DNA of 64,000 bases from Candidatus Omnitrophota bacterium (GCA_015233335.1 JADFXX010000006.1:1237-65236), one strand, 5' to 3'; counted from the first letter of the stretch, positions 9,594-63,023 are shown. Numbers and translations: made by a program. The notes: a model not told the origin generated them from the letters alone.

Positions 9594-10190
9594 CTATTTC
9601 ACCGCCGGAATGGTTAGCACCGTGCCGGGCTTGACAAAATTCGGGTTCTTGATCTTGTCTTTGTTCGCCTCATAAATTTTGTACCATTTGCCGTAAGAAC
9701 CAAAAAGCTTCTTAGAAATTTTCTGCAGGGTGTCATCTTTCTGCACTGTGTACGTATCTGCCTGCAGATTGCCCCCGTTCTGTGCGCCTGTAACAGCGGC
9801 AGGGGCAGGCTGGTCGCCCACCACCGGAACCACCACGGCAGGTGTAGTTGCGGCAGGTGCACTTGCGGCAGGTGCGCTCGCGGCAGGTTCACTTGCGGCT
9901 GACGCGCCCGATGCCGGCGGTTTTGCGGTCGTATCCGTTATGGCGTTAACCGCGCTCTCCTCTATCTTCCTGACCTCGGATTCAGGGACGGGCTTGGTGA
10001 CCTCCAGCACATAAATCTTCCGTGTTTTCTCGGCAGGCTCAACCTGGGGGCATTTGCCCTCGAGACAGCCTCCGTTTTTGATCTGGTCATACCCCACGCG
10101 GTTTTTATTCATCACGTACGTATGCGCTTCCAGACCGCATCCGGCGGCAAAGACCGATAAAATAATAAGAATGAAATTTTTGTTTAACAT
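9594..10190 (-). CDS. LysM-domain lipoprotein with Ala/Pro/Ser-rich linker
   Basis: Signal peptide plus lipobox (FAAGC). ASAPAASAPAA low-complexity linker. C-terminal LysM (YTVQKDDTLQKISKK...YEANKDKI...PGTVLTIP). Confidence 0.75.
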   Translation of the reverse strand: MLNKNFILIILSVFAAGCGLEAHTYVMNKNRVGYDQIKNGGCLEGKCPQVEPAEKTRKIYVLEVTKPVPESEVRKIEESAVNAITDTTAKPPASGASAASEPAASAPAASAPAATTPAVVVPVVGDQPAPAAVTGAQNGGNLQADTYTVQKDDTLQKISKKLFGSYGKWYKIYEANKDKIKNPNFVKPGTVLTIPAVK

Positions 10191-10191
10191 G

Positions 10192-11598
10192 TTATCCTCC
10201 GTTAACTGTTTTTTTCAGGACCACCAATCCCAAATCTTTTAACTGTTTAGCATCCACATCAGACGGCGCGTCCGTCATCAGGCATGTCCCCTTCTGGGTC
10301 TTGGGAAAAGCAATGCAGTCCCGGATGGATTCATGGCCTGTGATGATGGTCACAAGACGGTCAATGCCGTAGGCGACCCCTGCATGGGGCGGCGCGCCGT
10401 ATTCAAAAGCCTTAAGCAAAAACCCGAAGCGCTTTTCTGCCTCCTCGGGGGCGATTCCGATCGTGTCAAAAATCTTCTGTTGTAATTCCCGACGGTGGAT
10501 ACGCACCGACCCGCTGCCTATCTCATTGCCGTTTAAAACCAGATCATAACAGCGGCCGCGGATTTTGTCCAACTCCCCGGCTTCAAAGCGTGGCAGATCC
10601 TCAGGGTTGATCCCCGTAAAGGGATGGTGCTCAGAATCCCAGCGTTTTTCTTCGTTATTATACTTGAACAAAGGAAAATCCACAACCCACAAAAAGGCAA
10701 ATTCTTTGGGGTTATTTTTGTCCTGACGCGTGTCCGGTTTATCGGAATTATACCGGGCCATCGCCTCGGCATGGGTGATCCGGCCAAAAGGGATCGTCAG
10801 GTCGATATTCAATACTTCTTTAAATATTTTCTGATACATGCGTTCGGTCAAACTCAGGACAAAATCCTGGTCGACAAAAGACATTTCCATATCCAGCTGG
10901 GTAAATTCCGGCTGGCGGTCGGCACGCAGGTCCTCATCGCGGAAACATTTGACAATCTGATAATAGCGGTCCATCCCCGACACCATAAGGATCTGCTTAA
11001 ACAATTGCGGCGACTGGGGAAGAGCGTAAAAAGTCCCGGGATTTAGTCGGGAGGGAACCAGAAAATCGCGGGCCCCTTCGGGCGTTGATTTAGTCAATAC
11101 CGGCGTTTCGATCTCGGTAAATTTCTCGCCGTTTAAAAAAGACCTCATGGAGGCGCAAAGCTGATGGCGCAGGATCAGAGAATCCCTCACTTTTTTGCGG
11201 CGTATGTCGAGATAACGATAGGTCAGACGCACATCTTCGGCCGCCTCGATATTGTCATCGATCTCAAAAACAGGGACACGAGCGGTGTTTAAGATCTCGA
11301 GCTTTTGGGCCAGAAGTTCAATGTCTCCGGTGATGGCGTCGGGATTGACGTTCTTAGGCGGCCGGACATTGACCGTGCCTGTGATCTTGACGACGAATTC
11401 CGGGCCCAGTTTCTGCGCCTCGTTATGGGCATCAGGGCTGACCGAGGGGACAAAGACCACCTGGGTAATCCCGTAACGGTCGCGGATGTCGATAAAAATA
11501 AGTTTGCCGTGGTCACGCCGGCGATGCACCCAGCCGCAGAGCGTCACTTGCTCATCTTTAAAATTCTTATTCAATTCTCCGCACGTATGCGTTCTCAT
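10192..11598 (-). CDS. aspS: Aspartyl-tRNA synthetase, bacterial-type but short (468 aa)
   Basis: Bacterial-type N-terminus MRTHTCGEL...CGWVHRRRDHG. Class II motif 2 FRDEDLRADRQPEFTQLD and motif 3 GVAYGIDRL. The insertion domain between SDKPD and HHPFT is missing. Confidence 0.9.
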   Translation of the reverse strand: MRTHTCGELNKNFKDEQVTLCGWVHRRRDHGKLIFIDIRDRYGITQVVFVPSVSPDAHNEAQKLGPEFVVKITGTVNVRPPKNVNPDAITGDIELLAQKLEILNTARVPVFEIDDNIEAAEDVRLTYRYLDIRRKKVRDSLILRHQLCASMRSFLNGEKFTEIETPVLTKSTPEGARDFLVPSRLNPGTFYALPQSPQLFKQILMVSGMDRYYQIVKCFRDEDLRADRQPEFTQLDMEMSFVDQDFVLSLTERMYQKIFKEVLNIDLTIPFGRITHAEAMARYNSDKPDTRQDKNNPKEFAFLWVVDFPLFKYNNEEKRWDSEHHPFTGINPEDLPRFEAGELDKIRGRCYDLVLNGNEIGSGSVRIHRRELQQKIFDTIGIAPEEAEKRFGFLLKAFEYGAPPHAGVAYGIDRLVTIITGHESIRDCIAFPKTQKGTCLMTDAPSDVDAKQLKDLGLVVLKKTVNGG

Positions 11599-11613: not shown

Positions 11614-11758
11614 CAGCGGGTCCTGTCTAGGCCTTGATGTTAAGGTGCTCCTAATTAAAATGCGTACGTTACAGCCTTATAGAACGGAGATCCCCTTGTT
11701 CGCCCTAACATCAGTCACCGTCCGCCCCTTAACATCAATTCCGAGCCACCCGCCGCCG
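11614..11758. repeat. Family A structured intergenic element, copy 1 (divergent subtype)
   Basis: Termini GCGGGTCCTGTC.../...GCCACCCGCC. Helix CCTTGATGTTAAGG / CCTTAACATCAA. Conserved AAGGTGCTCCT. Lies between the hisS stop and the aspS start. Confidence 0.75.
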
Positions 11759-11771
11759 CAATTTTCCTGGA

Positions 11772-13049
11772 TTAATTACACAGCTTATCTTTTAAACTGC
11801 TTACTAGATTCTCTACGGCCAATGTTTCCTGCTGGCCTGTGCGCATATCCTTGAGCGACACGGTATTGTTCTTTATTTCTTCTTCTCCTAAAATCAGGGC
11901 AAAACGCGCACCGGCTTTGTCACAACGGCCCATCTGGGACTTCATAGACCCGACGGTGAAACTCATATCCGCGCGGATTGCCTCACGGCGCAGTTCCTGC
12001 AATATCAAAAACCCCCGAGACTGGTATTCTTCCTTCATGGCAATGACAAAAGCATCCAAACCCTTGGGCTTTGATGCCGCCTTGCCGCTTGCGAGCAAAA
12101 TACGTTCTATACCTAAGGCAAAACCAATAGCCCCGTAATTGATCTTTTCATTCCCGCCTAATTCCTGCACCAGTCCGTTATAACGGCCGCCGGCACCCAC
12201 CGCATCCTGACTGCCCAGACCTTCGGCCGTGATCTCAAAAACCGTATGGGTGTAATAATCGAGGCCCCTCACCAGATGCGCGGACACCTCAAAAGCCACC
12301 CCTATGCCCTTAAGAGAAGCCTGCACCTGCCCGAAATAATCCTGACTTTCGGGGGACAATGGCAGATCTTTCACAACTGCAGCCACTTCTTTACGACAGG
12401 ATTCATTCTTGCAATCTAATACTCGAAACACATTGCGTTCAAAACGGTTTTGGCACTCTTCACATAAATTGTCTTTATGATGAGCAAAAGTCTCACGCAG
12501 CCATAGGGATATATGGGCTTTATCTTCCCGGGAGCCTAAACTATTGATCTTAAGCCGCAGGCCCTTGACCCCGAATTCTTTTAACAGATGCATGGCCAGA
12601 GCTATCAGCTCAGCATCAAGGAAGGCCGAAGTTGAATTAGGTCCAATGGCCTCGGCTCCGATCTGGTGGAACTGGCGCAGACGGCCTTTTTGAGGGCGTT
12701 CGCCGCGGAACATCGCTCCTATATAAAATAATTTTGATAAGCTTTCCTTACCATCCATCGAGTTTTCAATATAAGAACGTACAACAGCCGCAGTCCCCTC
12801 CGGACGAAGGGCATAACCTTCATCTTCTTTTGAGCCGGCCAGTTCTAAAAGCTGTTTATTGACTACGTCGCTGGCGGCCCCCAGAGATCTTTTGAAAAGA
12901 TTGATATCTTCATAAATGGGCGTACGGATTTCCCGATAGCCGTAGGATTGGCAGACAAGCCGGGCCTTGGATTCTAATTCTTCCCAGAGACCGGCTTGAT
13001 CGGGTAATATGTCGGATGTCCCGCGGGGGACTGCGAATTTTTTGGGCAT
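11772..13049 (-). CDS. hisS: Histidyl-tRNA synthetase
   Basis: 425 aa with PRGTSDILP, FRGERPQKGRLRQFHQ and GGRYNGL motifs. Confidence 0.9.
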   Translation of the reverse strand: MPKKFAVPRGTSDILPDQAGLWEELESKARLVCQSYGYREIRTPIYEDINLFKRSLGAASDVVNKQLLELAGSKEDEGYALRPEGTAAVVRSYIENSMDGKESLSKLFYIGAMFRGERPQKGRLRQFHQIGAEAIGPNSTSAFLDAELIALAMHLLKEFGVKGLRLKINSLGSREDKAHISLWLRETFAHHKDNLCEECQNRFERNVFRVLDCKNESCRKEVAAVVKDLPLSPESQDYFGQVQASLKGIGVAFEVSAHLVRGLDYYTHTVFEITAEGLGSQDAVGAGGRYNGLVQELGGNEKINYGAIGFALGIERILLASGKAASKPKGLDAFVIAMKEEYQSRGFLILQELRREAIRADMSFTVGSMKSQMGRCDKAGARFALILGEEEIKNNTVSLKDMRTGQQETLAVENLVSSLKDKLCN

Positions 13050-13914: not shown

Positions 13915-14220
13915 TTAACAGATTTTCCCGTGCTTATAGGGACGTAGTTTATTTTTCTCGGATTTCCTGATGATCTCGGATTGAATATCAATGCCCAGCC
14001 CCCCGCACAGATCAAATAAACGGATCAGGGTATCGGCTAACTCCTCGCGGAAATTATCCTGGTCCTGATGCCGGTGGGCCTCCATGGCCTCGGCTAATTC
14101 AGTCACAACAAGCATCAGAGCTTCCCCTATATTACGGTCCTGATCCCAAAAACCTTTTTCCTTAGCAATACTGTGGCAGAGCTCGCACCATTCTTTTAGA
14201 CTCAATTTATCATAATCCAT
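13915..14220 (-). CDS. MazG-like nucleotide pyrophosphohydrolase (small all-alpha NTP-PPase)
   Basis: EALMLVVTELAEAMEAHR and REELADTLIRLFDL helices are typical of the MazG/NTP-PPase fold. Likely start MDYDKLSLKEW. Confidence 0.6.
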   Translation of the reverse strand: MDYDKLSLKEWCELCHSIAKEKGFWDQDRNIGEALMLVVTELAEAMEAHRHQDQDNFREELADTLIRLFDLCGGLGIDIQSEIIRKSEKNKLRPYKHGKIC

Positions 14221-14230
14221 ACATAGTCTC

Positions 14231-16011: not shown

Positions 16012-16067
16012 AATTTTTATAGTATAGCAGAATCAAGTTCCTGTACAATATAAAAAAAGCTCCGATT

Positions 16068-16106
16068 TAAAAAAAGGTCGGGCGGTAACCTTGCGATCAC
16101 CGCCCA
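16068..16106 (-). terminator. Intrinsic terminator (end of candidate sRNA or leader)
   Basis: Minus strand GGGCGGUGA-UCGCAAGG-UUACCGCCC stem-loop followed by GACCUUUUUUU. Confidence 0.55.
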
Positions 16107-16254
16107 GTGGATGCCGTCCCGCCCCATTTCGGAACGGCGAGGGAGATCTTATTATCTATTCCCTTTGGGATATACCTCCCGGGGTCTACTTAAAGGATAC
16201 CACCCTTTTTGGGAAAAACAAGGCAAGGGGGGAGATTTTAAGAAAACGCTACCA
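16107..16254 (-). ncRNA. Candidate structured RNA (unclassified sRNA or riboswitch-like leader)
   Basis: GC-rich stretch between two minus-strand terminators. Local hairpins: CCCAAAGGG, GGGAG..CUCCC, GCCGU..ACGGC. No ORF is present. It sits upstream of a PilZ gene. Confidence 0.3.
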
Positions 16255-16286
16255 ATAAAAACCCCGTCGGAGAAATCCAACGGGGT
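16255..16286 (-). terminator. Intrinsic terminator after yceI-family gene
   Basis: Minus strand CCCCGUUGG-AUUUCU-CCGACGGGG followed by UUUUUAUU. Confidence 0.6.
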
Positions 16287-16313
16287 TTAAAATCGGGATA
16301 AAATTCTGGATAA

Positions 16314-18609: not shown

Positions 18610-18639
18610 TTATAGCCTTTGTAACACTACGCAAGCGGG

Positions 18640-18861
18640 CTGCAGGGATAGGATTGTTATTTTTAACTCACTGTCATTTTTAGTTAAAAATTCGTTACTT
18701 TTTGGGGAATCCCGAGCCGAAGGGCGAGGGATGTCTGAACTTGCTTGAGCTCTTTATTTCCAGGGAAATAAAGAGCGAGTTGTTCAGACACCCAAAAAAT
18801 AATGAATTTTTGACGTTAAAAAAATGACCGTGAGTTAAAAATAACAATCCTATCCCTGCAG
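18640..18861. repeat. Family B nested-hairpin element, copy 1
   Basis: Outer stem ctgcagggataggattgttatttttaactcac / gtgagttaaaaataacaatcctatccctgcag. The conserved core is shared with 35094-35334. Confidence 0.8.
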
Positions 18862-18882
18862 CCTCACCGCAAATTCTAGGAA

Positions 18883-24791: not shown

Positions 24792-24980
24792 GTGCGTGGG
24801 ATGGAAGGGCAGCTATTATGTTTTCGGAACATTCGGGGATTTTTGGCCAAAAGTTTGCGAGGATTTACAACAAATTTTTTCCAAATGAAGAGAATCTTTA
24901 GAAAAAATTTGTTGTAAACCGAAGCAAACGGCCAAAATATCCCGTTCCGAGAACATAATAGCTGCCCTTCCATCCCTGCA
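24792..24980. repeat. Family C foldback element, copy 1
   Basis: Arms gggatggaagggcagctattatg... / ...cataatagctgcccttccatccc. Apical loop ccaaatgaagagaatctttag. Lies between the lspA stop and the lgt start. Confidence 0.8.
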
Positions 24981-28716: not shown

Positions 28717-29577
28717 CTATTTAATATACTTTCCGATGATCAGGCCCAGCTCTTTTTTCTTTTTGGCCGGGATCATCTTGGGGTTTGTTACGATCGCGAA
28801 TTTTAAAGCATCGCAGGCGCTAAAATGTTTTAGTTTCCCGACTTGGACGATCGCTGATCTTAAAATGGCTTTAGCATTGGCCACATTTTTACCCAAATAT
28901 TCAAGGATCATCTCAATCGTCACGGCATCATGCGACGGATGCCAGCAGTCATAGTCGGTCACAGCCGCGAGAGTCGCGTAAGAGATCTCTGCTTCCCTGG
29001 CGAGTTTGGCCTCGGTCAAATTTGTCATTCCAATGATGTCCATGCCCCAGCTGCGATAAAGATTGGACTCGGCTTTGGTCGAAAACTGCGGGCCCTCCAT
29101 GTTCACATAGGTAGCCTTGCGGTGGACTTTGATATTTAATTTCTTGGCGCTTTGCTCGAGAATGTCCGCAATCTCTTTGGAAACAGGGTCGGCAAAAGCC
29201 ACGTGGGCCACAATGCCGCGGGTAAAAAAAGTGTCCTGGCGCGCACGACGCGTACGGTCGAGGAATTGATCGGGAATAACAAAATCCATGGGCTTATATT
29301 TTTCTTTAAGGCTTCCGCAGGCTGAGACGGACATGATCGCTTCGACCCCTAATTTTTTCATGCCGTAAATATTGGCGCGATAGTTGATCTCTGAAGGACT
29401 GATGCGATGCCCCCGGCCGTGGCGCGGCAGGAAGACCACGGGAATGCCCTCTAGTGTTCCGGTCATGAATTTATCTGACGGCGCACCAAACGGTGTTTTG
29501 ACAATGACTTCTTTGAGCTTCGCTATCCCTTCGATCTGATATAAACCACTGCCTCCGATGATCCCGACTGTTGCCAT
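28717..29577 (-). CDS. mtnP: S-methyl-5'-thioadenosine phosphorylase
   Basis: 286 aa with IGIIGGSGLY...FLPRHGRGH, the PNP/MTAP family signature. Confidence 0.85.
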   Translation of the reverse strand: MATVGIIGGSGLYQIEGIAKLKEVIVKTPFGAPSDKFMTGTLEGIPVVFLPRHGRGHRISPSEINYRANIYGMKKLGVEAIMSVSACGSLKEKYKPMDFVIPDQFLDRTRRARQDTFFTRGIVAHVAFADPVSKEIADILEQSAKKLNIKVHRKATYVNMEGPQFSTKAESNLYRSWGMDIIGMTNLTEAKLAREAEISYATLAAVTDYDCWHPSHDAVTIEMILEYLGKNVANAKAILRSAIVQVGKLKHFSACDALKFAIVTNPKMIPAKKKKELGLIIGKYIK

Positions 29578-29630
29578 ATATCCCTCCGTCTTTATTTAGG
29601 TTCTGTCAAAAGTACGCTTAGGTCATTGAC

Positions 29631-29772
29631 GCGGGGCCTGTCCTTAGCCTCAATACTAAGGTGCTCCTCCGTCGGGGGCTGCCCTGACGGAAGCTCCGAT
29701 GGTGGTTTGCCCTCAACCGCCCCTTTGAACAGGGGCCGTGCGCGCCTTAGTATTGAGGCTAAGGACACCCGC
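29631..29772. repeat. Family A structured intergenic element, copy 3
   Basis: Termini gcggggcctgtcc...ggacacccgc. 20-bp helix ccttagcctcaatactaagg / ccttagtattgaggctaagg. Lies between the proC stop and the mtnP start. Confidence 0.8.
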
Positions 29773-29784
29773 TAATCCACATAT

Positions 29785-30573
29785 TTATTTAGCAAGTTTT
29801 CCGGAGCGCTTTCTTGCGGCGCTCAAAGCAGCCTTCATTAACTTTTCAAACACATTATTTTTAAAGAACACCTTCATGGCCGCCTCTGTCGTGCCGCCCT
29901 TGGATGTGACTTTGGCGCGTAACTGGGCGGCGTCCAATGAGCCGGCCTTTAATAAATGGGCACTTCCAAGTAAAGTATTATAGACCAATAGCTTGGCTTG
30001 CTCTTTGTTAAAACCCAATTTTTCAGCCGCGGCGGTCCATTTTTCGACCAGTAAAAACACATACGCCGGCCCGCTGCCTGAAACGGCGGTCAAGGCATCC
30101 ATCTGGGCTTCCCTGACAACGACGGTCCGGCCGATCGTTCCTAAAATGGTCTCTGCTAGTTTTAAATCCGCCGGTTTGGCATAACGGCCTCCCGATATGC
30201 CGATCGTCCCCTCTCGGATCAACGCCGGTAAATTGGGCATGGCACGCACCACTTTTGTCTTGCCGCCCAAATGCTTCTCAAAATATCTTGTTGTCAGTCC
30301 CGCGGCAATCGAAATAAACAGTTTCTTTTCAGGCGCAGTGACTTGTTCTAAAAGGGGTGCCATATCCTGCGGTTTGACTGCCAGAATAAGCACGCCTGAG
30401 GATTCTACCACTTTCGTGTCCCCAACGACAATGTTGTGGTATTTTTCTTTCAAATATTTCACACGTGCGGGATTTGATTCACAAATATGCACATCATACT
30501 TGGGAGCAAGCCCCTTAATCAAAGCCTCCCCCATATTACCGCCGCCGATCAATCCGATTGTCTTCTTTGTCAT
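29785..30573 (-). CDS. proC: Pyrroline-5-carboxylate reductase
   Basis: 262 aa with Rossmann motif IGLIGGGNMGEAL and C-terminal SKGGTTEAA. Confidence 0.9.
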   Translation of the reverse strand: MTKKTIGLIGGGNMGEALIKGLAPKYDVHICESNPARVKYLKEKYHNIVVGDTKVVESSGVLILAVKPQDMAPLLEQVTAPEKKLFISIAAGLTTRYFEKHLGGKTKVVRAMPNLPALIREGTIGISGGRYAKPADLKLAETILGTIGRTVVVREAQMDALTAVSGSGPAYVFLLVEKWTAAAEKLGFNKEQAKLLVYNTLLGSAHLLKAGSLDAAQLRAKVTSKGGTTEAAMKVFFKNNVFEKLMKAALSAARKRSGKLAK

Positions 30574-31329: not shown

Positions 31330-31704
31330 TCAACGAAGAGCTGGCGGGCCTACCACTTCAACGACTTTATCAATAAGGGCCTGCAGTTTAAGGGGCTTGA
31401 GAAGATAGGCCTTGACACCGTGGCGTACAAACAGGGGCTCTAACTCATTATAAGCGGTCAGAACGACGACCGGGATATTGACGTATTCGGGAATTTTGGA
31501 TTTCTCCATGATGAAGGTATACCCGTTCATCTTGGGCATTTGGACATCCAGAATGATCAAATCCGGTGTTTTAGTCTTCAGACACTCCAGGGCTTCGTTA
31601 CCGTCGAAGGCCGTCAGCACAGCATACCCCCGCTCTTCCAATTTACGTTTGGAAATTTCCACCACTACGGGTTCATCGTCAACAACTAAAATCGTTTTAG
31701 GCAT
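31330..31704 (-). CDS. Single-domain response regulator (CheY-like), paralog 1
   Basis: ILVVDDEP..., DLIILDVQMP and LLKP receiver motifs. About two-thirds identical to its neighbour. Confidence 0.85.
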   Translation of the reverse strand: MPKTILVVDDEPVVVEISKRKLEERGYAVLTAFDGNEALECLKTKTPDLIILDVQMPKMNGYTFIMEKSKIPEYVNIPVVVLTAYNELEPLFVRHGVKAYLLKPLKLQALIDKVVEVVGPPALR

Positions 31705-31713: not shown

Positions 31714-32082
31714 TTAAGCCGCAGGCCCCACCACTTCAGAGACTTTATCAAGGAGTTCCTGCATATTAATAGGTTTAAGCAAATAGCCCTTGACGCGATG
31801 GCGTTTAAACAACGGCCCTGTTTCACTGGAGGCGGTCACCATCACGACAGGAATATTGACGTATTGAGGATTTTTATTCTTTTCTATGATAAAGGTGTAT
31901 CCGTTCATATCAGGCATATGAACATCCAAAATAATGAGGTCAGGGATTTGGGCCTTCAGGCATTCTAAAGCTTCATTGCCGTTGGAAGCCACAAGTACGC
32001 CATATCCGCGCTCCTCTAACTTGCGCTTGGAAAGTTCTGTCGCCAAACGGTCATCGTCAACCACTAAAATGGTCTTTAACAT
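31714..32082 (-). CDS. Single-domain response regulator (CheY-like), paralog 2
   Basis: ILVVDDD..., DLIILDVHMP and LLKP receiver motifs. Confidence 0.85.
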   Translation of the reverse strand: MLKTILVVDDDRLATELSKRKLEERGYGVLVASNGNEALECLKAQIPDLIILDVHMPDMNGYTFIIEKNKNPQYVNIPVVMVTASSETGPLFKRHRVKGYLLKPINMQELLDKVSEVVGPAA

Positions 32083-32086: not shown

Positions 32087-34885
32087 TTATTTTATACTAC
32101 CCGAGTCATCTACAAAAGGAATTTCTAAATTAAATATCTCGGCCGTGATAAACTCCAGGGCTTGCTTGTAAGCTCCCAGACGCTCTTGACTGTTTTTAGC
32201 CCCTGAGGGATCAAAAAACAGGTCCATACTTGTTGTCCTTAAATAGTAAAGAGCGCTGTTAACACAACACCCGGGAAATTGCCGGCATAAATAATCCGCG
32301 TACAAGGGCATCTGGAATGATTTAACATGCTCGCGGATATAGTCACGGTTTAATTTAAGCCCGGGAATCCCGGAAATGTCTTGGGGCATGCTCTCCACAG
32401 AGCCTGTTTTATAATCTAAAATTAAAATGGTTCCGTCAGTCAATTCATCAACACGGTCAACCCTGTAGGTCCAATGCACCTTTTGGCCTGCCAGTGTGAG
32501 GGTCTCTTCAAACTTCTTTTCTACCCAAAGCACCTTTTGGACCTGATCCCGGCAACGGGCGGCTTCAAAATTTAAAAACCTTTCTAGTCTTGTTTTTAAG
32601 ACCGTTTCCATCAAAAAAGCATCGCTGCGCCCTGCGCGGCCGAAGACAGCGGCAAACTTGCTTTCGTAAATTTTCTGGAAATATTTACGGAAAGTTTCAT
32701 CGAGCAATGGTTTTTTCCCGACAAACCCGCCAAACGCTTCCTCAAGCAGGTCATGAATGAACGTACCAATATGACGAGCCTCGGGATTGTCCAATAAATC
32801 ATCCTTGGGCCTCAATCCCAGAATATACTGGCAATAAAAAGCGTACGGATTTTTGAGATACGTGTTGATGCTGGTGGAAGAAAACCTGAAACTTTTAAGA
32901 TATTCCAGCATCGATGCTGTTTTGGGGATGCTTCGGCTTTTCTTTTCTACGGAAACATCAAAAGCTCCCCTGATGATCTCAAGGCCCCCTATCACACCCA
33001 AACGCTGTTCCTTCTCCCAGATGAGTTCTTCCAAAAACCGGCTTCGCACGCGGTCATTGTTCTGCTGATAGATCAGATGCACGTTTTGGGCCGCACTGAT
33101 TAAGCGCATGAAACCATAGCGCTGGATCTCTTCTTCCAGCTCAAGACGGTCAAGATCCAGTTTGATCATCACCTCCCGGGGTATCAAGGGCTCATAAATG
33201 TTTAAATTAGGCAACAGGCCTTCATTGACGTCCACTACGATCACATTCTTAAAATTCAAAGCACGGGTTTCAAAAAGCCCTAAAATCTGCACGCCCTTGA
33301 GCGGTGAGCCTGAAAACGCCACCATTTCGGCCGACAAACGCTCTTTTAAAACCCGGAACAATTCCCTGGGCTCGAAGACCTCCCGGGCAAAGCTGCAGGA
33401 TGCCAATTCATCAGCAATGTCCTTCATACGCAGGGCAATCTCGGCGTTAAACGGATATTGATCCATGGCGCTATTGCTTTGCATCAAATCGACAAACCCT
33501 CCCAAGGCCCGGGCCAAATCCTCCGGAGAACATATATTTTCAAAATCTTTAAAAAATACTTGATGGACCAAGTGCGCCTCTTTCTTGAGTTCACTTAAAG
33601 AAACGCTGACATCCATCGCCTGCAAGGTTTCAAGAACCAAACTTAAAAGCTTCTCATCCCGGATAATTTCGCCTAAATCCAAAAATATGCGGCCGGACAG
33701 GTCGCTCAATACCTCACCTTTGAGCACTTCTTCTATTTTTGAAACCAACACACGCGTAAGACCGGGTTTATCTGCGGCACTCAAATTCCTGACCAGAGCC
33801 TGCCCTAAGAGGCGCAAATAGTCCCTGGTATAATACAGCGAGCCCTTACGGTGATTCTGGGCTTCTATCACCAATGTCAAAAGCGTATATAAAGCGCTGC
33901 GTTTAAGCGGATACCCCATGGATATATTAAATTCCCCGAGCTCCTCTCCCAGCGCGGTCAAGAGCGTCAGAAGAAATTCACCGTCGGGCAAAACAATGAC
34001 CGTTGACTCAATATCCCCGATCCCCTGCAGGATCCGGTTGACCATGCCCGCCTGAAGGTGGCTGTCAAAAGCTTCATAGACCTTTAGCTCAAATTTACCG
34101 GGTTTAACCCGGGGACCTTCAAGAATCGGAGTCCCAAAAGTCTTGGCAATGCGCTCAAGTGCCGGCCAACGCCTCTGATCACCCTGCATGAACAGAACTG
34201 CTGAGGCCCGCCCATAAATATTCCTGATAACCGCATTTTCAGTCCGGTGAAGATAAAAGAAATTGCAAAATAAGATTTCATCGAAGGGACTTAAGTCACA
34301 GGCACTGACACGGCGTGAGGCCTCTAGGTATCTAAACCCGCGCGGGGCTAATTGCCGCTGTTGAAGATGCCGGTGATAGGCCCCCCGCAATACAAACAAA
34401 TTCATCAGAAGCTTATTGATATCTTCGGGTACGCTGTAACCTATTTGGGCGTGCTCTTTAATGCGGCTCAAGGATTCCGACGGCACATCCTCCAGATCCA
34501 ACTGCTCGATAAAATGAAGGATCTCCCGGGCCCATGGTAAAAACTGGGCGAAAGTCTCGCGATTGTGACAAACCCAAGGGCATAGTTCACGCGCTAACCG
34601 ATAAATGGTATAGCAGTGGTCCAGTTCACTGCCCGCTGAAAACGGCTTTAGGCCATACGCCACATAAGCCATCCAGTCATCGATGGTAAAAAACTTGGGC
34701 GGCACAAATGCACGGCCGATGCGGCGCGCCAATTCCTTCTTGATAAACAGCTGGGGACGCCGACCGCCGAAAACAAGACATAGTCGGGAGAGATCCCCGC
34801 CCTTCTCACTATAATAACGATAGATATAGTCCACTACATGAGGGAGAAACTCTTCGGTAAATGGAACTGTAATAATCTTGCTCAT
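32087..34885 (-). CDS. AddB-like PD-(D/E)xK nuclease subunit (no Walker A)
   Basis: 932 aa. C-terminal RVDRVDEL...ILILDYKTGS nuclease motif. Cysteines (FYCQY...LCRQFPGCC) are compatible with an Fe-S staple. Follows the UvrD-like subunit. Confidence 0.7.
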   Translation of the reverse strand: MSKIITVPFTEEFLPHVVDYIYRYYSEKGGDLSRLCLVFGGRRPQLFIKKELARRIGRAFVPPKFFTIDDWMAYVAYGLKPFSAGSELDHCYTIYRLARELCPWVCHNRETFAQFLPWAREILHFIEQLDLEDVPSESLSRIKEHAQIGYSVPEDINKLLMNLFVLRGAYHRHLQQRQLAPRGFRYLEASRRVSACDLSPFDEILFCNFFYLHRTENAVIRNIYGRASAVLFMQGDQRRWPALERIAKTFGTPILEGPRVKPGKFELKVYEAFDSHLQAGMVNRILQGIGDIESTVIVLPDGEFLLTLLTALGEELGEFNISMGYPLKRSALYTLLTLVIEAQNHRKGSLYYTRDYLRLLGQALVRNLSAADKPGLTRVLVSKIEEVLKGEVLSDLSGRIFLDLGEIIRDEKLLSLVLETLQAMDVSVSLSELKKEAHLVHQVFFKDFENICSPEDLARALGGFVDLMQSNSAMDQYPFNAEIALRMKDIADELASCSFAREVFEPRELFRVLKERLSAEMVAFSGSPLKGVQILGLFETRALNFKNVIVVDVNEGLLPNLNIYEPLIPREVMIKLDLDRLELEEEIQRYGFMRLISAAQNVHLIYQQNNDRVRSRFLEELIWEKEQRLGVIGGLEIIRGAFDVSVEKKSRSIPKTASMLEYLKSFRFSSTSINTYLKNPYAFYCQYILGLRPKDDLLDNPEARHIGTFIHDLLEEAFGGFVGKKPLLDETFRKYFQKIYESKFAAVFGRAGRSDAFLMETVLKTRLERFLNFEAARCRDQVQKVLWVEKKFEETLTLAGQKVHWTYRVDRVDELTDGTILILDYKTGSVESMPQDISGIPGLKLNRDYIREHVKSFQMPLYADYLCRQFPGCCVNSALYYLRTTSMDLFFDPSGAKNSQERLGAYKQALEFITAEIFNLEIPFVDDSGSIK

Positions 34886-34898: not shown

Positions 34899-35044
34899 GC
34901 AGGTCCTGTCTCGGACTTGCCATTAAGGTACTCCTAATTGAACCGCGTTTGTTAAAGCCCTACAGAACGGTGGTTTCCCATAACAAGCCCCTTGGGCAGT
35001 CACCGTCCGCCCCTTAATGGCAAAACTCCAAGCCACCCGCCGCA
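34899..35044. repeat. Family A structured intergenic element, copy 2 (divergent subtype)
   Basis: Begins caggtcctgtctcgg. Helix cttgccattaagg / ccttaatggcaa. AAGGTACTCCT junction. Ends gccacccgcc. About 13 nt upstream of the addB-like start. Confidence 0.75.
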
Positions 35045-35093
35045 ATGTACAAAGAAAAGTAGTGCCTGTCCCTACTTTTTAAGCGTTTCCTTG

Positions 35094-35334
35094 CGTGCAT
35101 TGCAAGTGATAAATTTGTTATTATGAGCGACCTGTCATTTTTTAGTCAAAAGGTCTTTATTTTTTCGGGAATCCCTCGACTTTTTTGTCGAGGGATGGCT
35201 GAACTTGTTTGTGCCTTAAAGTTCCAGAGAACTTTAAGGCGAGTTGTTCAGCCACCGAAAAAAAAAGAGCTTTTGACGTTAAAAAAATGACCGCGAGCGA
35301 ATAATAACAAATTTATCACTTGCAATGCATGCGC
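35094..35334. repeat. Family B nested-hairpin element, copy 2
   Basis: Outer stem gcattgcaagtgataaatttgttattatgagcg / cgcgagcgaataataacaaatttatcacttgcaatgc. The conserved core (gtcattttt..., ggaatccc..., ctgaacttg..., cgagttgttcag..., ttttgacgttaaaaaaatgacc) is shared with copy 1. Confidence 0.8.
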
Positions 35335-41926: not shown

Positions 41927-42105
41927 TTATAGAAACCAGGAACCATTCCTCCACTTTGAGTATAAACTATAAATCATCGCCAATCAACGAAAAATAAAAA
42001 AACGTTAATGCCCTAAATATATAAAAAACGCTGGAAATTGCTTCATTGGACTGTATAATTAAAATTGCAATCATACTTAACCTTATCATCATTAAGGAGT
42101 GGAAT

Positions 42106-42507
42106 ATGTTTACTCAAAAAAGGACAAAGGGCTTTACACTCGTGGAAATCATGATCGTGGTTGCGATCATCGCACTGCTTGCCGCGATCGCTATCCCCAA
42201 CCTGCTACGCTCCAAAATGTCTTCCAATGATTCTTTGGCCAAGGCGACTTTACGGGCAATTTCAACTGCGGCTGAATCCTATGGAACAGCCAATAACGGC
42301 AACTACCCCGGAGCTGTTGACTCGTTGACAACCGCAACTCCCCCATTTCTTAACACTAACTATTGCACCGGTAATCTGATTTCCGGATATGTTTATGCCT
42401 GCGGCATGGCCAGCACCGGTTATACGGTCACCGCCACACCCGGAACTGTCGGTACCACTGGTTCTACCACCTATACCATCACAACCGGTGGTGTTTTAAC
42501 TCCGTAA
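42106..42507 (+). CDS. Type IV pilin / T2SS pseudopilin-like protein, copy 1
   Basis: Start MFTQKRTKGFTLVEIMIVVAIIALLAAIAIPNL carries the prepilin G/F cleavage site and Glu+5. GGAG RBS. C-terminal Cys pair (YCTGNLISGYVYAC). Confidence 0.85.
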   Translation: MFTQKRTKGFTLVEIMIVVAIIALLAAIAIPNLLRSKMSSNDSLAKATLRAISTAAESYGTANNGNYPGAVDSLTTATPPFLNTNYCTGNLISGYVYACGMASTGYTVTATPGTVGTTGSTTYTITTGGVLTP

Positions 42508-42532
42508 TCTTTTTTAGGATTAGGATTCTACT

Positions 42533-42567
42533 AAAAAGGCTATTTTTTAAAAAAAATAGCCTTTTTC
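42533..42567 (+). terminator. Intrinsic terminator after pilin copy 1
   Basis: The near-perfect palindrome aaaaaggctatttttt/aaaaaatagccttttt forms an A/T-flanked hairpin. Confidence 0.5.
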
Positions 42568-42630
42568 CCTAATAATAGTGTATACTTAATTCGGAGTCAT
42601 AATTAACCATATAACCGTAAGGAGGGTACT

Positions 42631-43032
42631 ATGTTTACTCGGAGAAAAGAAAAGGGCTTTACACTCGTGGAAATCATGATCGTAGTTGCAATCATCGCTT
42701 TACTCGCGGCGATCGCTATCCCCAACCTGCTGCGCGCCAAAATGTCTTCCAATGATTCTTTGGCCAAAGCGACTTTGCGGGCAATTTCTACCGCATCTGA
42801 GTCCTATGGAACTGCCAATAACGGTAATTATCCAGGGAGCGTCAACTCGTTGACAACCGCAACTCCCCCGTTTCTTAACACTAACTATTGCACCGGTAAT
42901 CTGATTTCCGGATATGTCTATGCCTGCGGCATGGCCAGCACCGGTTATACGGTCACCGCCACACCCGGAACTGTCGGCACTACGGGTTCTACCACCTATA
43001 CCATTACAACCGGTGGTGTATTAACTCCGTAA
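42631..43032 (+). CDS. Type IV pilin / pseudopilin-like protein, copy 2
   Basis: MFTRRKEKGFTLVEIMIVVAII... Only a handful of aa differences from copy 1. GGAGGG RBS. Confidence 0.85.
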   Translation: MFTRRKEKGFTLVEIMIVVAIIALLAAIAIPNLLRAKMSSNDSLAKATLRAISTASESYGTANNGNYPGSVNSLTTATPPFLNTNYCTGNLISGYVYACGMASTGYTVTATPGTVGTTGSTTYTITTGGVLTP

Positions 43033-43055: not shown

Positions 43056-43093
43056 AAAAAGGGGACATGATATCATGTCCCCTTTCTTTTTTA
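43056..43093 (+). terminator. Bidirectional intrinsic terminator between convergent genes
   Basis: ggggacatga/tcatgtcccc stem flanked by an A-run (left) and a T-run (right). Confidence 0.65.
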
Positions 43094-43684: not shown

Positions 43685-43753
43685 AATTTCCCTCTCTTTC
43701 CCTTCAAGTTTCTGCCAAAAGTTCGCATGCCTAAAATTCATTTGCCTGATTAC

Positions 43754-43895
43754 GCGGGGCCTGTCCTTAGCCTCAACATTAGGGTGCTCCTCAGGCGAGG
43801 GCAGACCTAAAGGAAGCTCCAATAGTAGTTATCCCTTAATCGCCCCCTTGTGCAGGTGCCGTGCGCGCCCTAACATTGAGGCCAAGGACACCCGC
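43754..43895. repeat. Family A structured intergenic element, copy 4
   Basis: Termini gcggggcctgtcc...ggacacccgc. Helix ccttagcctcaacattagg / cctaacattgaggccaagg. Confidence 0.8.
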
Positions 43896-43978
43896 TGATC
43901 CTCGTACTTATAAAGCTTTTGATACTACTTCTTTAAGCCTAGCAAAAATTTCTTGATCAGGCAAGTCATCTTGAAAAA

Positions 43979-44542
43979 TTAACAAAAAACATGAAAGGTT
44001 GTGCAAAACCAGGCGGGAAAGACTTCAAGGCCTTGAGCATCCCTTGAATCTGATCGGCTGGTGTCCCATAAGTACTCAAAACGCTCCTCGTATTTCTCGA
44101 TCGTCCCTGTATCAGCGATGATCAAAAGATTTTCTTCGTTCTTTTCCTGGGCCGTTCTTGTCCAGTTAAAGGAACCAGTGATCAATACCTTGCGGTCAAT
44201 GATCGCAAATTTATTGTGCATAAGGCCAAACCCCAAATGGTATTTGACCTTACAACCATGTTTTATCAGATACCCGCTTTTTGAAGAGGATTCAATCTCC
44301 TGACTTTGGTCTAAAACAATCCTCAACCGGACCTGACGTTCATAGGCATCTTTTAGGGCCCGCGCGATCGGGCCTGAGGAGAGATAATACATGGCGATAT
44401 CGATTGTTTGAACGGCGCTTTTTATTTTGGAAATAACCGCCTCTTGGCATGCGCCGTTGGGAGAAAAATAAACATCGATATCACCGGCCGTTGACAGCGG
44501 TGGCATCACATAAAAACACAAAAATAACAGCCATTTCTTCAT
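43979..44542 (-). CDS. Secreted PLD-family (Nuc-like, single HKD) endonuclease/phospholipase
   Basis: Signal peptide and HKD motif HNKFAIIDRKVLITGSFNWT. The 187-aa size is typical of Nuc-type enzymes. Confidence 0.8.
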   Translation of the reverse strand: MKKWLLFLCFYVMPPLSTAGDIDVYFSPNGACQEAVISKIKSAVQTIDIAMYYLSSGPIARALKDAYERQVRLRIVLDQSQEIESSSKSGYLIKHGCKVKYHLGFGLMHNKFAIIDRKVLITGSFNWTRTAQEKNEENLLIIADTGTIEKYEERFEYLWDTSRSDSRDAQGLEVFPAWFCTTFHVFC

Positions 44543-51073: not shown

Positions 51074-51137
51074 TAAAAAAACCCTGACAGGGTTTCCTGT
51101 CAGGGTTAAAAAGTAGGGGCCGAGATAAACTCGGCCC
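51074..51137 (-). terminator. Tandem intrinsic terminators after the 1522-aa gene
   Basis: Minus-strand hairpin gggccgag-tttat-ctcggccc is followed by ccctgacagg-aaa-ccctgtcaggg and UUUUUUU. Confidence 0.65.
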
Positions 51138-51146: not shown

Positions 51147-54100
51147 TTATTTCACTAATTCATAAAGCGCCGGGACATTCTCCGGTGTCAACGGCGATAT
51201 CCTACGAATGATCGACGTCAAGCCGTTTAAATTCAGCATGGCCTTGTCCTGGAATTGCGGAGGCAGGGGCATCCCTGCACCGTCGACTTTGATGTTAATC
51301 GTCAAGTTTTCGTCGCTTAAGTTGATACCACCGACGTTCTTATTCAAAGGATTCATCGCCGGATTCACCGGTGCCGCAGGTGCGACTACCACAGGAGCCG
51401 GCACAACAGGAGCGGCTGGCACAGGCGCAAGACTTGCCTTAACAACAGGACTTGCATTGATCATACTGCCCATGTTTCTTAATCCATTCCTCTCGCGCTC
51501 CAACTGCCTATTTAGTCTTTTGTTAGCAGCTTCAAGCGAAGCTAGACTATCCTCAGCAGCCGAGACCGCGGCATTTAATAATGTGTCGTTACGATTTGGA
51601 ACTGTTAACCCAATCAGCTGACCTGTGACATCATTTCTTGTTTTTACGATCGTTCCTCTTTTAGCATTTTCAACCTGATCAACTAAAGCGGCGACTTGAT
51701 CTTTTATATCGACCTTCTTGCTGCCGATACTACGACCAAGCTTTGCGTTGATCTTTGCTGTCTTCACAGCCGGAGTGATCGTTTTATCAGCGAGAATACC
51801 ACTCACTATATCCCCTAACCTAGCATTATAATTTTCAATCTCACGGTCCAAGTCTTCCTGTACCTTTCTAGCTTGGGCTTGTTGGGCCATCATATTTCGT
51901 CTAATTTCTAGAACACCTGTCTCGTTGAAGCCATTTAACAATGCCCTTTGGGTTCCCGTAGTTCTATTCCAGGCTGTCAAATGACTAAAGGCAGGAGACG
52001 CTTTTGTTCCCGCCGCTATTGCCGATGCACGTGCAGCTTCTACTCTTTCACGTTCATCTTGGATATCACGCAAATACTGCCCAACATGGGCTCCTGATTT
52101 AAACTCTTCTTCAAAAGTAACCCCATGTTCGAAAGCACCTTTGGCTACAGCCAAAAGATCATCTCGTTTGACTGTTTTCTCGCTTTCAGTAAGGGCTGTG
52201 TCGCGATTCACTTGTGCTATCGCATCTCTGAAGGCCTTGTCTATAGCGTTGACGCTGTCCCTCAAGACACCGACATTTTTTGCATCAACTTGGGGAAGAT
52301 TCTGAATATCAGATTTCACCTGGCTGATCTGTTCATCCACATCTCTTAGTTCTGCCTGAAACCTGAGAACTCGGGCCCTGGAAGCATCAACTTCCTTTGC
52401 TAGATCTCTCCACTCGGGAGTATTCCGAAAATTTGCTTCTTCAATACCTTGGGCCTGTTGATCTCTGACCCATTGATCACGTTTAGCCTCTGAGCGGCTC
52501 AACACGCCTCTAACCTGTTGCAAAACATCATCCCTCTGCTTGCGCAGTTTAGTTAAGTCATCCAGCTGTCCGGTCAAACCTACAACGAGAAGCTTAGTTC
52601 CGGATGCCATGCTTTTAATTTGGTCTTCCAAGTCTCTGACTTTATTACTCGCTGCAATCACTTGCGGCGCAAGCGCGTCATTTATGGCTCTGGTATTATT
52701 AGGATTGCTCGCCAAAGCGAACAATTGATTATATTGCGCCCTTGCCGCATTTAATTGAGCTTGTAAATTATGCAGCGATGTTTGAGTAGCGGCAGTTGCG
52801 GCGGGTGTCGGCGTCGGCGTCGGAGTTGGTGTCGGAGTTGGTGTTGGTGTTGATGTTGATGTTGCTGCCGGCGCCGGTGCTGCCGACGGTAAAGCGGTCG
52901 CAGGCACAAAAGGAATACCCGCTCGAAGCGCTATAATTTCTTGTTCAAAATTATGGTGCTTTAACCTTAACACTGATTCTCGGGACTTGGATGCATCAAT
53001 TGCATCCTGAGTTGGTGCTGCAGCTCCTGATTTCGCCACTTGGTTCTGCATTTCTGCCAAAGTCTCGGTTTCAACAGCCCTAATCCCTTGTCTTAAATCT
53101 CTAATTCTTCTTTCAACACGTCTTTTTTCTCTATCTTCAGCTATTTTTAAATTGCGTTCCAGAACCCCTTTTTTCCCTATAAAGAAGCTTAGGAATTTAT
53201 CCTTTGCACGAGACAGCATTGAATTACATTTTGCCAAGGCATCTTTTGTAGCTGCTATTTGTGCGGCTCCAACTTCCCCTTGCCTCTGGTTTTGAGCAAG
53301 TCTTTCTTCTACAACAGGCAAAGGTTCTTCTGCATTTTTCTTCGTCCCTGCCCTATATGAACCATAAGCACCGGCGGCCCCTACAAGTACCAACGCGGCT
53401 AGTCCAAACTCTAAAGCTCTTTCTCGAGTTAGGTCATTTTGAACAGTCGCTACCAGTTTTTGTTCGTCCGCAATTTTTGTCTGGGTGAGTAAATTATCAG
53501 CTTTACTTTTTGCATCTGTCATGTTATCCAGCTGAGTTTGAAGACTCGAGATATCTTGTTCTTGGTCATCAAGTTGTAGCTTTTGGGAAGCATTATCAGC
53601 TATAAGCCCGTTGATTCTATCGAGATCTGCTTTCTTTTCTGCATCAGTTCTTGTTTTGTCATCTACTATCTGCTGTTTAGCCGCTGCAAGATTCTTAGAT
53701 GCATCTGCAAGCTGCTGTTTGCTTGTCGATAGATCACCTTTCAATCCTGTTATTTGTGTATTAAGATTTGTTCTTTCCGTTTCGAAATTCTTTTGTTGTT
53801 GATTATAGGCTTGAACATCTTGGGCGTGTTTCTGCTGTGCTACTGTCAAGAGACCATTGACCCTGTCTAACTCTGCTCCGGGCACCATATGCGATATTTG
53901 GTCCTCTAAACCTGCAATTTCTATGGTATCTTGATGCACGGTATTCGCTAAAGCTTGTATGGCCTCTGCATCACTTTGATGCTGAGCATTTAGATTAGCA
54001 ATTGTTGCCTTCATCTCTCTTTTGATGGCACCATCGGATTTTCCGCCAAACACGACCCGGAAAGTTCCGCCAATATTATCTACTATTACCTGCTCACCCA

Positions 54101-55715: not shown

Positions 55716-55899
55716 TTTATTCTCCTGGTTGATCCTTATATTTGCAATTGCATAGGGTTTAATAAATCTTTATATCTATCCACTTAATGGGGCCAACTAG
55801 ACCTCATTTAGTTGAAGTATAACATATGACTTTTCAAAATGCCAATCGACATTAAAAATTATTATAAGTCATTGGATTGTATGTAGTTATGAAATAAGA

Positions 55900-55964
55900 A
55901 GATTGCTTCGTCACCCTGCGGGCTCCTCTCAATGACACCACAAGAAGATCTCCCCGCAATGACA
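55900..55964. repeat. Short repeats AGATTGCTTCG...CAATGACAC (1.5 copies)
   Basis: agattgcttcgtcaccctgcgggctcctctcaatgacac plus agatctccccgcaatgacac, directly flanking the ctaB stop. Confidence 0.6.
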
Positions 55965-57923: not shown

Positions 57924-58064
57924 GCGGGGCCTGTCCTTAGACTCAATACTAAGGTGCTCCTCCGTCGATGGCAACCCTAACGGCAGCTTCTACGGTAGTT
58001 CCACTTAACCGCCCACTTGGGCAGGGGCCGTGCGCGCCTTAGTATTGAGTCTAAGGACACCCGC
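57924..58064. repeat. Family A structured intergenic element, copy 5
   Basis: Termini gcggggcctgtcc...ggacacccgc. Helix ccttagactcaatactaagg / ccttagtattgagtctaagg. Confidence 0.8.
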
Positions 58065-58119
58065 TAATCCTTGTACTTATGAAAAGTAGCGTCTTCCCTG
58101 CTTTTTGTCAGGTAAGCTA

Positions 58120-58309
58120 TGTGCGCGGGATGGAGGTACAGCTATTATGTTTTTGGCACAATAAGGAATTTTTTGCCAAAAGTCTTCTTAATTTTACGGC
58201 AAGAATGTTCCAAATAAAGAGAATCTTTAGAACATTGTTGCCGTAAATTTAATAAGACGGCAAAAATATTCCGTGGCGAAAACATAATAGCTGTACCTCC
58301 ATCCCTGCA
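58120..58309. repeat. Family C foldback element, copy 2
   Basis: Arms gggatggaggtacagctattatg... / ...cataatagctgtacctccatccc. Loop ccaaataaagagaatctttag. Confidence 0.8.
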
Positions 58310-62837: not shown

Positions 62838-63023
62838 CGTGGGGCCTGTCTTGAGCCTCAACACCAACTGGTCCCCCCTGCTTTGGTCGTTAACGACCAA
62901 GGGGGGATTAAGGTGCTCCTCCTCCGGGGACAGCCCTGACGGCAGCTTCAACGGGGGTTTCACTGGACTGCCCACTTGGGCAGGTGCCGTGCGTGCCTTA
63001 ATATTGAGGCTCAAGACACCCGC
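62838..63023. repeat. Family A structured intergenic element, copy 6 (with nested ~45-nt hairpin insertion)
   Basis: Termini cgtggggcctgtc...agacacccgc. The helix cttgagcctcaa...attaagg / ccttaatattgaggctcaag is interrupted by cccccctgctttggtcgttaacgaccaagggggg. Confidence 0.8.

Follow-up and report, generated by a model that had tools for sequence, protein, structure and literature searches.

What kind of element is the GC-rich hairpin that recurs between co-directional genes of a Candidatus Omnitrophota genome: a functional RNA that the host retains, or a mobile repeat? The question arises from a 64,000-nt stretch of DNA (the whole stretch that we analysed, called the window here), in which a first-pass annotation had described six copies of such a hairpin, here named family A. 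When we searched the whole 64 kb with a covariance model made from 29 family A copies (filters off), we found six copies, all on the minus (gene-sense) strand and either exactly where they had been placed or within 1–3 nt of that, and no cryptic further copies. Five of the six match at 119–137 bits with E-values of 4e-24 to 5e-28, and the match to the sixth is split by an insertion. The six copies align full-length (MAFFT) and are 58–86% identical to each other. The single six-copy family that had been proposed does have these six members, but it falls into two subfamilies, A1 (two window copies) and A2 (four window copies):

11616-11756, minus strand: A1 copy, 137.4 bits; core 11616-11753, with a conserved 5' leader (sense strand ...AAUUGCGGCG) to ~11760; in the gap between hisS (11772-13049) and aspS (10192-11598).
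34899-35044, minus strand: A1 copy, 127.9 bits; ends 13 nt before the start of an addB-like PD-(D/E)XK gene (32087-34885).
29599-29784, minus strand: A2 copy, 121.3 bits; core 29631-29772, with A2-specific flanks at 29773-29784 (AUAUGUGGAUUA) and 29599-29630 (GUCAAUGACC...UUUUGACAGAACC); in the gap between proC (29785-30573) and an MTAP-like phosphorylase gene (28717-29577).
43708-43925, minus strand: A2 copy, 121.0 bits; core 43754-43895, with flanks UAUCAAAAGC / CUUUUGGCA that partially match, by eye, the A2 outer helix of the JADFXH01 copies; in the gap between a PLD-like gene (43979-44542) and a 76-codon ORF starting at ~43684.
57924-58086, minus strand: A2 copy, 119.4 bits; core 57924-58064, 5' flank ...CAUAAGUACAAGGAUUA; in the gap between a cytochrome b/c fusion gene (58339-60627) and ctaA (ATG at 57878).
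62839-63023, minus strand: A2 copy, split model matches at 62907-63002 and 62839-62868; in the gap between COX1 (stop at 63276) and COX3 (62218-62820), interrupted by a nested hairpin.
62865-62908, minus strand: nested foreign GC-rich hairpin of 44 nt (sense strand CCCCCCUUGGUCGUUAACGACCAAAGCAGGGGGG...), in one arm of the sixth copy.

In the order listed, the six copies end 17, 13, 53, 70, 45 and 18 nt before the next start codon, which agrees with the distances of 13–70 nt given earlier, and their sense-upstream partners are hisS, a UvrD-like helicase gene, proC, the PLD-like gene, the cytochrome b/c fusion gene and COX1. The downstream genes have their own Shine-Dalgarno sequence (SD) directly after the element. 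The sixth copy had been annotated as a long one; it is indeed present, but its extra length (185 nt) is due solely to the foreign 44-nt hairpin, and alignment with the 57924 copy showed that this insertion is clean.

To describe the anatomy of the element, we give the boxes first on the plus strand and then on the gene-sense strand. On the plus strand the termini are invariant in the six copies (GCGGGKCCTGTC and GMCACCCGC in the MAFFT alignment), as are the inner boxes (GGTGCTCCT and CGTSCGCNCC). The termini, the AAGGTGCTCCT junction and the CCGTGCGCGCC and CACCGTCCGCCCC inner segments that had been picked out earlier are all real. On the gene-sense strand, the outer box pairs GCGGGUG with CA[GGM]CCCGC (the GACAGGMCCCGC side), and the three bracketed nucleotides, GGM, form a bulge at the base of the helix in every copy. 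The two termini are related to each other as inverted copies, and neither is itself a palindrome or has a GTAG-type motif; they are also unequal, as one terminus has 3 extra nt (positions 6–8) in every copy. Between the outer and inner box lies an arm of ~17 bp that can have any sequence provided that pairing is kept. The inner box places GGSGCGSACG(G) opposite AGGAGCACC with one constant mismatch, which is C·A in A2 and G·A in A1. The apical part beyond the inner box is ~67 nt in the Omnitrophota forms and 2 nt in short forms described below.

We found that one hairpin spans both ends of the element and that the folds are far more stable than those of shuffled sequences (z of –2.6 to –9.0). 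The outer helix consists of 23 pairs, and in the alignment of 29 copies 99.6% of its cells are paired. Ten of the 23 pairs change on both sides, and none of 500 shuffles attains the observed values; when the partner strand is slid by 1–3 columns as a control, pairing falls to 30–52%. The helix is therefore variable in sequence and complementary, as the first-pass annotation had it, and the covariation that it had wanted to see supported is strong in these 29 copies. Compensated arms are nevertheless no proof of a function in RNA, because they are also common in REPIN DNA hairpins (PMC3116915). Most window copies have well-paired stems, and two A2 copies are without any mismatch. The 67-nt inner domain behaves differently from the helix: RNAalifold gave no common fold for A1 and only a weak, subfamily-specific fold for A2, and a scan of column pairs in this domain was swamped by the split between A1 and A2. 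In A2 copies of other genomes, conserved flanks pair as an additional outer helix (sense strand; 5' flank UGUCAAAAGUU...GGAUUA, 3' flank GUCAUCUAGAAGCGGAAUUUUGACAGAACC), and this brings the unit to ~205 nt. In the window these outer flanks survive only in part, at 29631 and 43754, where their conservation is seen against the JADFXH01 copies; RNAfold did not draw the A2 outer helix for the window copies (43700-43930 was folded for the 43754 copy).

To see how widely the family is distributed, we searched a single genome of each species with the pattern GCGGGKCCTGTC-N14-22-GGTGCTCCT, which gave 46 loci. Some 30 of these are true copies, several per genome, from six Omnitrophota metagenome-assembled genomes (MAGs) and three MAGs labelled Planctomycetales; apart from the short forms, the remaining loci are chance matches in GC-rich genomes. 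Altogether family A is found in at least 10 Omnitrophota or 'Planctomycetales' MAGs, and the copies are thus not restricted to the locus where they were first noticed. The window itself belongs with the Omnitrophota MAGs: its AspS shares up to 90% identity with proteins from Candidatus Omnitrophota MAGs, and a protein 100% identical to its CtaA is listed from an NCBI Omnitrophica MAG. The short forms, of 74–81 nt, come from a Saccharimonadales MAG, a Vicinamibacterales MAG and a metagenome contig of 39% GC. They have all four boxes and complementary arms of their own, with only UA or CA between the inner boxes. The short form on the 39%-GC contig (L047, 81 nt) is a sense-oriented, in-frame part of a carbamoyltransferase gene, where it inserts 27 codons exactly at a short loop of solved carbamoyltransferase homologues. 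Searches of viral contigs, plasmids and phages, including blastn of plasmid and phage collections, found no family A.

Relatives lack the element at three of the window sites, and there the flanking genes overlap or come close to abutting. At hisS-aspS, three relatives (AspS 82–90% identical to that of the window) have no element: the hisS stop overlaps the aspS start (AGAAAGGTTTTGTAATG), and the covariance model found no copy in the 21 kb searched in each. In the window the same gap is 173 nt. The window insert is followed by a second instance of the aspS ribosome-binding region (TAGAAAGGTTGATATG), and at this one site there is a ~17-nt duplication that spans the region. In a further relative (L052), COX1 and COX3 overlap as TGATG, and the cytochrome b/c gene is separated from ctaA by 22 nt; the corresponding window gaps are 455 nt and 460 nt. 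Each of these two window gaps holds a family B hairpin and an A2 copy, followed by a new SD and start codon. Family B is a different family from A at the same insertion site:

58127-58305: family B hairpin repeat of ~180 nt with 33-nt arms, adjoining the 57924 copy on its sense-upstream side.
63073-63247: family B hairpin repeat, adjoining the 62839 copy.

The order B-then-A2 is seen at 57924, at 62839 and in locus L008.

We next consider how similarity is distributed among the copies. Almost every copy is closest to a paralogue in its own genome (87–98% identity). Three pairs of copies at orthologous sites are merely 58, 73 and 86% identical, and in two of the three pairs the two copies are of differing sequence types: the proC-mtnP site carries A2 in the window and A1 in locus L001, and the other type-switched site carries a third type in L023 and A1 in L042. 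L001 has no equivalent of the 34899 copy because its synteny with the window ends after the addB-like gene. To judge from their 58–86% identity, the window copies themselves are not the product of a recent burst.

The element has a strand. In the arms of 32 copies, we counted 459 Watson-Crick pairs, 24 G·U pairs on the gene-sense strand and 1 in the reverse sense; a G·U on the sense strand is an A·C on the other. In the arms of the 43754 copy, for example, all three G·U pairs belong to the sense strand. Several of these wobbles are inherited from genome-specific master copies, and we judge that there are ~15 independent events, still a strong bias to one side. Of 38 copies, about 34 are co-oriented with their flanking genes; L014 (between prfA and prmC), L027, L046 and the Saccharimonadales short form are not. 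The antisense copies L014, L027 and L046 do not differ from the others in their arms or in the strand of their wobble pairs, indicating that the asymmetry belongs to the element and not to the local transcript. Thus, one strand is privileged. The strand evidence fits an RNA fold in the operon transcript and a hairpin on the lagging-strand template equally, because for co-directional genes the lagging-strand template has the sequence of the mRNA. IS200/IS605 and REP-type Y1 enzymes act on just such a folded lagging-strand template. In the loci studied here, 83% of genes are co-oriented with the element (55 of 58 genes in the window are on one strand), and GC skew in the 8-kb loci follows the coding strand; effects of replication and transcription are inseparable in such co-directional arrays with a skew that follows the coding strand.

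Taken together, these data suggest that family A multiplies within Omnitrophota genomes as a mobile but non-autonomous repeat (MITE/REPIN-like in the broad sense), and we consider this reading likely. The first-pass annotation had proposed either a REPIN/MITE-like element or an mRNA-processing or stability module, and the empty sites, the similarity that follows the genome, the nested and decayed copies and the in-frame intragenic copy all point to the former. Family A is a new, previously unnamed repeat family and a known kind of selfish element, without a new principle. Copies would persist at gene junctions, the few places where a compact genome tolerates insertion. The unequal ends, the arms that are free as long as they pair and the loop of either 2 or 67 nt favour an element that is read as a folded single strand, and propagation may accordingly proceed via such a strand, recognised by its structure and two boxes. 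The mobiliser could be a hairpin-specific enzyme, of the HUH Y1 (RAYT/TnpA) type or the attC-integrase type, that acts on the lagging-strand template. Pfam searches found no transposase, integrase or reverse transcriptase among ~50 window ORFs and 17 copy-flanking ORFs elsewhere; the genes next to the copies are all ordinary housekeeping genes, and their synteny is conserved. Using approximate query sequences, which makes this a weak negative, we found no tblastn match to RayT, IS608 or IS200 TnpA in 0.5 Mb of loci. Among the flanks we saw no fixed-length target-site duplication abutting the ends; the words shared by flanks are only slightly longer than those shared by shuffled pairs (5.30 vs 4.86 ± 0.17), and the 5' flank on the sense strand is biased towards AAT-TGCG, with no fixed target evident.

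Whatever moves them, the copies are probably co-transcribed with the operons in which they lie, since they are inside obligate operons (hisS-aspS, COX1-COX3, cytochrome bc-ctaA) and no promoter or intrinsic terminator site was called at any copy on either strand, in a terminator scan limited to loops of 3–8 nt, a range that does not admit the whole element as a terminator. There is no U-run after the stem in the sense direction. In the mRNA, an insertion would replace translational coupling by a ~30-bp rod, which by analogy with Correia and REP elements might be an RNase III substrate or an exonuclease block. A role of the RNA as RNase III substrate or stabiliser is plausible on the same analogy.

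Such a role leads to the first alternative, in which family A is a host-selected cis-acting RNA module, mobility is merely its mode of arrival, and the copies are kept by locus-wise selection. The functions proposed for it would be separation of cistrons by RNase III, a block to 3'-5' exonucleases, or display of the AGGAG box to ribosomes or a protein; by eye, no small ORF behind the AGGAG box is conserved between copies. RNase III needs about two helical turns, and the A2 stem, at ~28 bp, exceeds this. The 24-to-1 bias of G·U pairs towards the gene-sense strand and the 34 of 38 copies oriented with the genes are expected for such a module, although single-stranded DNA explains the strand evidence equally, and the antisense copies L014, L027 and L046 keep both their arms and their wobble strand. 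Intact stems at 58–86% identity, two of the A2 stems being free of mismatches, also speak for it, and well-paired arms in diverged window copies also fit selection on each copy. Three orthologous sites are each occupied in two species; however, the copies at orthologous sites differ in type, and each matches its own genome. The downstream genes do have their own SD directly after the element, but the same essential operons are element-free in close relatives and have overlapping genes instead. Finally, cleavage at the L047 short form, which lies within a coding sequence, would destroy the mRNA, and the 67-nt inner domain is without a consistent fold. On this balance we regard a host-selected RNA module as rather unlikely.

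A bolder version of the mobile reading, which we put forward tentatively and think improbable as a whole, is that the four-box core (GCGGGUG / GGSGCGSACG / AGGAGCACC / GACAGGMCCCGC) is the recognition module of an undescribed hairpin-reading mobilisation system that is neither RAYT nor IntI. The substrate of such a system might be either single-stranded DNA or the transcript. The arms would be free, the apical loop would carry a cargo of 2 to ~70 nt, and the elements would either target or survive at tightly coupled junctions, rebuilding the ribosome-binding site of the downstream gene as they do so.

To a mobile repeat read as a folded strand can be opposed a classical MITE, that is, an internally deleted insertion sequence moved as duplex DNA in trans by a DDE transposase. 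Family A shares with such elements its terminal inverted repeats, an unrelated centre, a small non-coding unit of 140–205 nt, multiple copies between genes, nests and insertion polymorphism between related genomes. The enrichment of direct repeats in the flanks (weak) and the presence of the aspS ribosome-binding region on both sides of the hisS-aspS insertion also agree with it. However, the two ends differ by a constant 3 nt at positions 6–8, and the middle 17 bp are free if paired, unlike what sequence-specific end binding would give. Strand-specific wobbles and an orientation bias are unexpected for duplex cut-and-paste, no duplication of fixed length abuts the ends, and no full-length parent is present among 47 loci. 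We therefore consider a DDE-mobilised MITE quite unlikely. A related candidate, an IS200/IS605-derived PATE-like element, was rejected because a single hairpin covers both ends where separate subterminal hairpins belong, and because no fixed target is evident, whereas such elements insert 3' of a fixed 4–5-nt target without duplicating it.

The structure of family A also invites comparison with attC, the recombination sites of integron-type cassette arrays. attC sites are folded single strands that are defined by structure, with two box pairs, extrahelical bases and a variable apical part. Family A shares the outer and inner box pairs, the constant extrahelical bases, arms that are free but conserved in their pairing and a terminal structure of 2–67 nt, and its copies stand in a single orientation behind the genes of a co-directional array, with genome-specific similarity. 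In contrast to attC, the R'' RYYYAAC and R' GTTRRRY boxes that make up the core sites are missing from the ends of all copies on both strands, and the boxes are spaced differently. Instead of cassettes, core housekeeping genes with conserved synteny flank the copies, which lie 5–18 kb apart and not one per gene, and no integrase was seen among the window ORFs. That these are attC-like sites is very improbable. A riboswitch, small-RNA gene or other known structured RNA is just as hard to credit: conserved sequence and fold close to downstream start codons would suit one, but there are six copies in 64 kb before unrelated genes (the grounds on which a riboswitch had been rejected before), relatives have empty sites, neither a promoter nor a terminator is called at the copies, and Rfam has nothing to offer.

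For the last point, Rfam 15 gave zero matches at the gathering score (window, L001, L011, L028 and L032) and no credible overlap at E<=10 around one A2 copy, one A1 copy and one short form. This agrees with the first-pass annotation, which had recognised no named RNA family in the element, and of the known families that might have claimed it, those in Rfam 15 did not. The boxes are, by eye, unlike those of SRP RNA, K-turns, sarcin-ricin motifs and hairpin and HDV-like ribozymes, which are likewise without an Rfam match here. The window has no tRNA or tmRNA.

Among named repeats, family A resembles REPINs, Correia/ERIC elements and RPEs most, and it does not show the defining features of the named families that were tested. 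REPINs are REP doublets that form hairpins and are moved by a RAYT, a tyrosine transposase (Y1 HUH) whose single-copy gene is typically flanked by repeats. With approximate queries, no such RAYT was found in the 0.5 Mb searched. Like a REPIN, family A is a long intergenic hairpin of ~100–200 nt with conserved ends and variable complementary arms, is non-coding, clusters and forms genome-specific populations. It differs in that its ends are not palindromic REP units and are without a GTAG-type tetranucleotide, in its large non-palindromic inner domain and constant 3-nt bulge, and in its host phylum. In REPINs, the sequence between the ends commonly varies while complementarity is kept by compensated changes, and a single-stranded folded intermediate has been proposed (PMC3116915); compensated arms between copies are in this respect already known (PMC3116915).

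By eye, the family A sequences look unlike the consensus sequences of Correia, ERIC and RPE, and family A is probably without sequence similarity to these families. Correia elements have fixed 26-bp repeats, duplicate a TA target and carry promoters and an IHF site. Neither fixed 26-bp repeats nor a TA duplication is seen in family A, which is otherwise similar to Correia and ERIC elements in being intergenic, ~100–200 nt long and bounded by inverted ends. Correia and ERIC repeats are co-transcribed with their neighbours and form hairpins in mRNA; RNase III cuts transcripts that contain Correia, and RNase E mediates the effect of ERIC insertions on mRNA decay (PMC10969869). RPEs are small palindromic repeats that insert in frame into coding genes and spare the reading frame (PMC10969869). 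The 81-nt L047 short form, in frame inside a gene, is similar to an RPE; however, RPEs are mostly intragenic and of different base composition, whereas the Omnitrophota copies of family A lie between genes.

A last comparison concerns possible action in RNA. Between the co-directional early genes of phage T7 there are repeated, related RNase III hairpins with an internal loop. These serve as a model for how family A might act in a transcript, but the T7 sites are fixed in one phage genome and are not dispersed mobile repeats, and there is no homology.

What goes beyond the textbook picture of such repeats is a four-box core common to several phyla, a modular apical insert, G·U pairs that are almost exclusive to one strand, and the way in which overlapping essential genes have repeatedly been split, a new ribosome-binding site following the element. 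Omnitrophota are an uncultured phylum whose small genomes are colonised by several families of structured mini-repeats, and these separate essential genes that are translationally coupled, among them hisS/aspS and COX1/COX3. For annotation there is now a calibrated model with clear boxes, which guards against mislabelling as riboswitches or small RNAs. The family also offers a clean case for separating RNA from single-stranded DNA as the origin of strand-specific hairpin constraints, and if the mobilising enzyme is new, a design of fixed boxes, free arms and a variable loop could be of interest for structure-guided DNA insertion.

Family A also shares its junctions with elements other than family B, and is itself a target. 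Between the UvrD-like helicase gene and the 34899 copy there is an element of a third family:

35093-35332: family C element with 51-nt terminal inverted repeats (I1; families D15, D19), adjoining the 34899 copy.

The same order, C-then-A1, is found at 34899 and in locus L031. No longer element with family A ends was found among 47 loci; one locus (L012) looked longer and was considered as a possible parent element, and it proved to be a degraded copy with a nested palindrome of its own.

Copies of family A, the ~140-nt intergenic hairpin repeat, lie directly beside other repeats both in the window and in other genomes. The noncoding features and family A variants considered here are as follows (window coordinates unless a locus is named; L numbers are family A candidate loci from other genomes or metagenome contigs).

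24798-24976, 58127-58305 and 63073-63247: family B hairpin repeat, ~180 nt
18638-18863 and 35093-35332: family C element, ~230 nt
14016-14230, 16012-16313 and 55716-55964: three more intergenic gaps, 215-300 nt
L023 611-751 and L041 363-504: third inner-domain type of family A, with the outer and inner boxes of the family
L047 640-720 (contig Ga0315279_10071817): short form of family A, 81 nt, 72% GC

The family B repeat has outer arms of 31-33 nt plus a 33-nt inner palindrome, and its three window copies share a mean identity of 76%. In two of these three copies, a family A copy of subfamily A2 lies immediately downstream in the sense direction (the strand of the flanking genes), and the same B-then-A2 order is found in another genome (L008). 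Family C elements carry terminal inverted repeats of 44-51 nt that are 86-98% complementary. One of them immediately precedes the A1 copy at 34899 in the sense direction, and the C-then-A1 order recurs in locus L031 of the metagenome-assembled genome (MAG) JABDGZ01. In this MAG, we found that a further repeat containing GGCTGATNNCGATATGTTTTCCTGCGTA adjoins A1 copies and is common to L002 (~3400-3460) and L034 (~5470-5530); a similar stretch is present in L039. Many small repeat families seem to nest at the same junctions in these genomes. In the three further window gaps, families A, B and C are absent, and there were no Rfam or tRNA matches.

The third inner-domain type is 89% identical between two MAGs (L023 and L041) and at most 75% identical to A1; thus, family A comprises more subfamilies than the two found in the window. 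The short form in L047, in which 2 nt replace the ~67-nt inner domain, lies in frame within the gene for a carbamoyltransferase in an organism with 39% GC, where it accounts for 27 extra residues (AGGAKGRAPDGAHVRSTGGRETRDRTR) placed in a loop.

Further observations concern genes of the window, several of which contain repeats or are duplicated:

1-4527, minus strand: ORF of >1500 codons, extending past the window start
9836-9910, first copy at 9836: 15-nt tandem unit CGGCAGGTGNANTTG, within a LysM-domain gene (9594-10190)
31330-31704 and 31714-32082: tandem paralogues, two small neighbouring genes
42046-43032, plus strand: neighbouring pair of pilin-like genes, whose products carry an N-terminal methylation motif
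51147-55715, minus strand: 1522-residue ORF

The ORF at 1-4527 contains many diverged internal repeats of ~100-300 nt each (repeat families D1-D14), had no Pfam match and could encode a large repetitive surface protein. For the 1522-residue ORF, Pfam gave no match at E ≤ 1e-5; two strong terminator-like hairpins lie just after it (51080-51137). The tandem paralogues are 71% identical across 300 nt (31339-31638 and 31717-32016). The pilin-like genes, among the very few plus-strand genes in the window, are 87% identical across 300 nt (42093-42392 and 42618-42917), and a bidirectional terminator-like hairpin follows the pair at 43058-43085.
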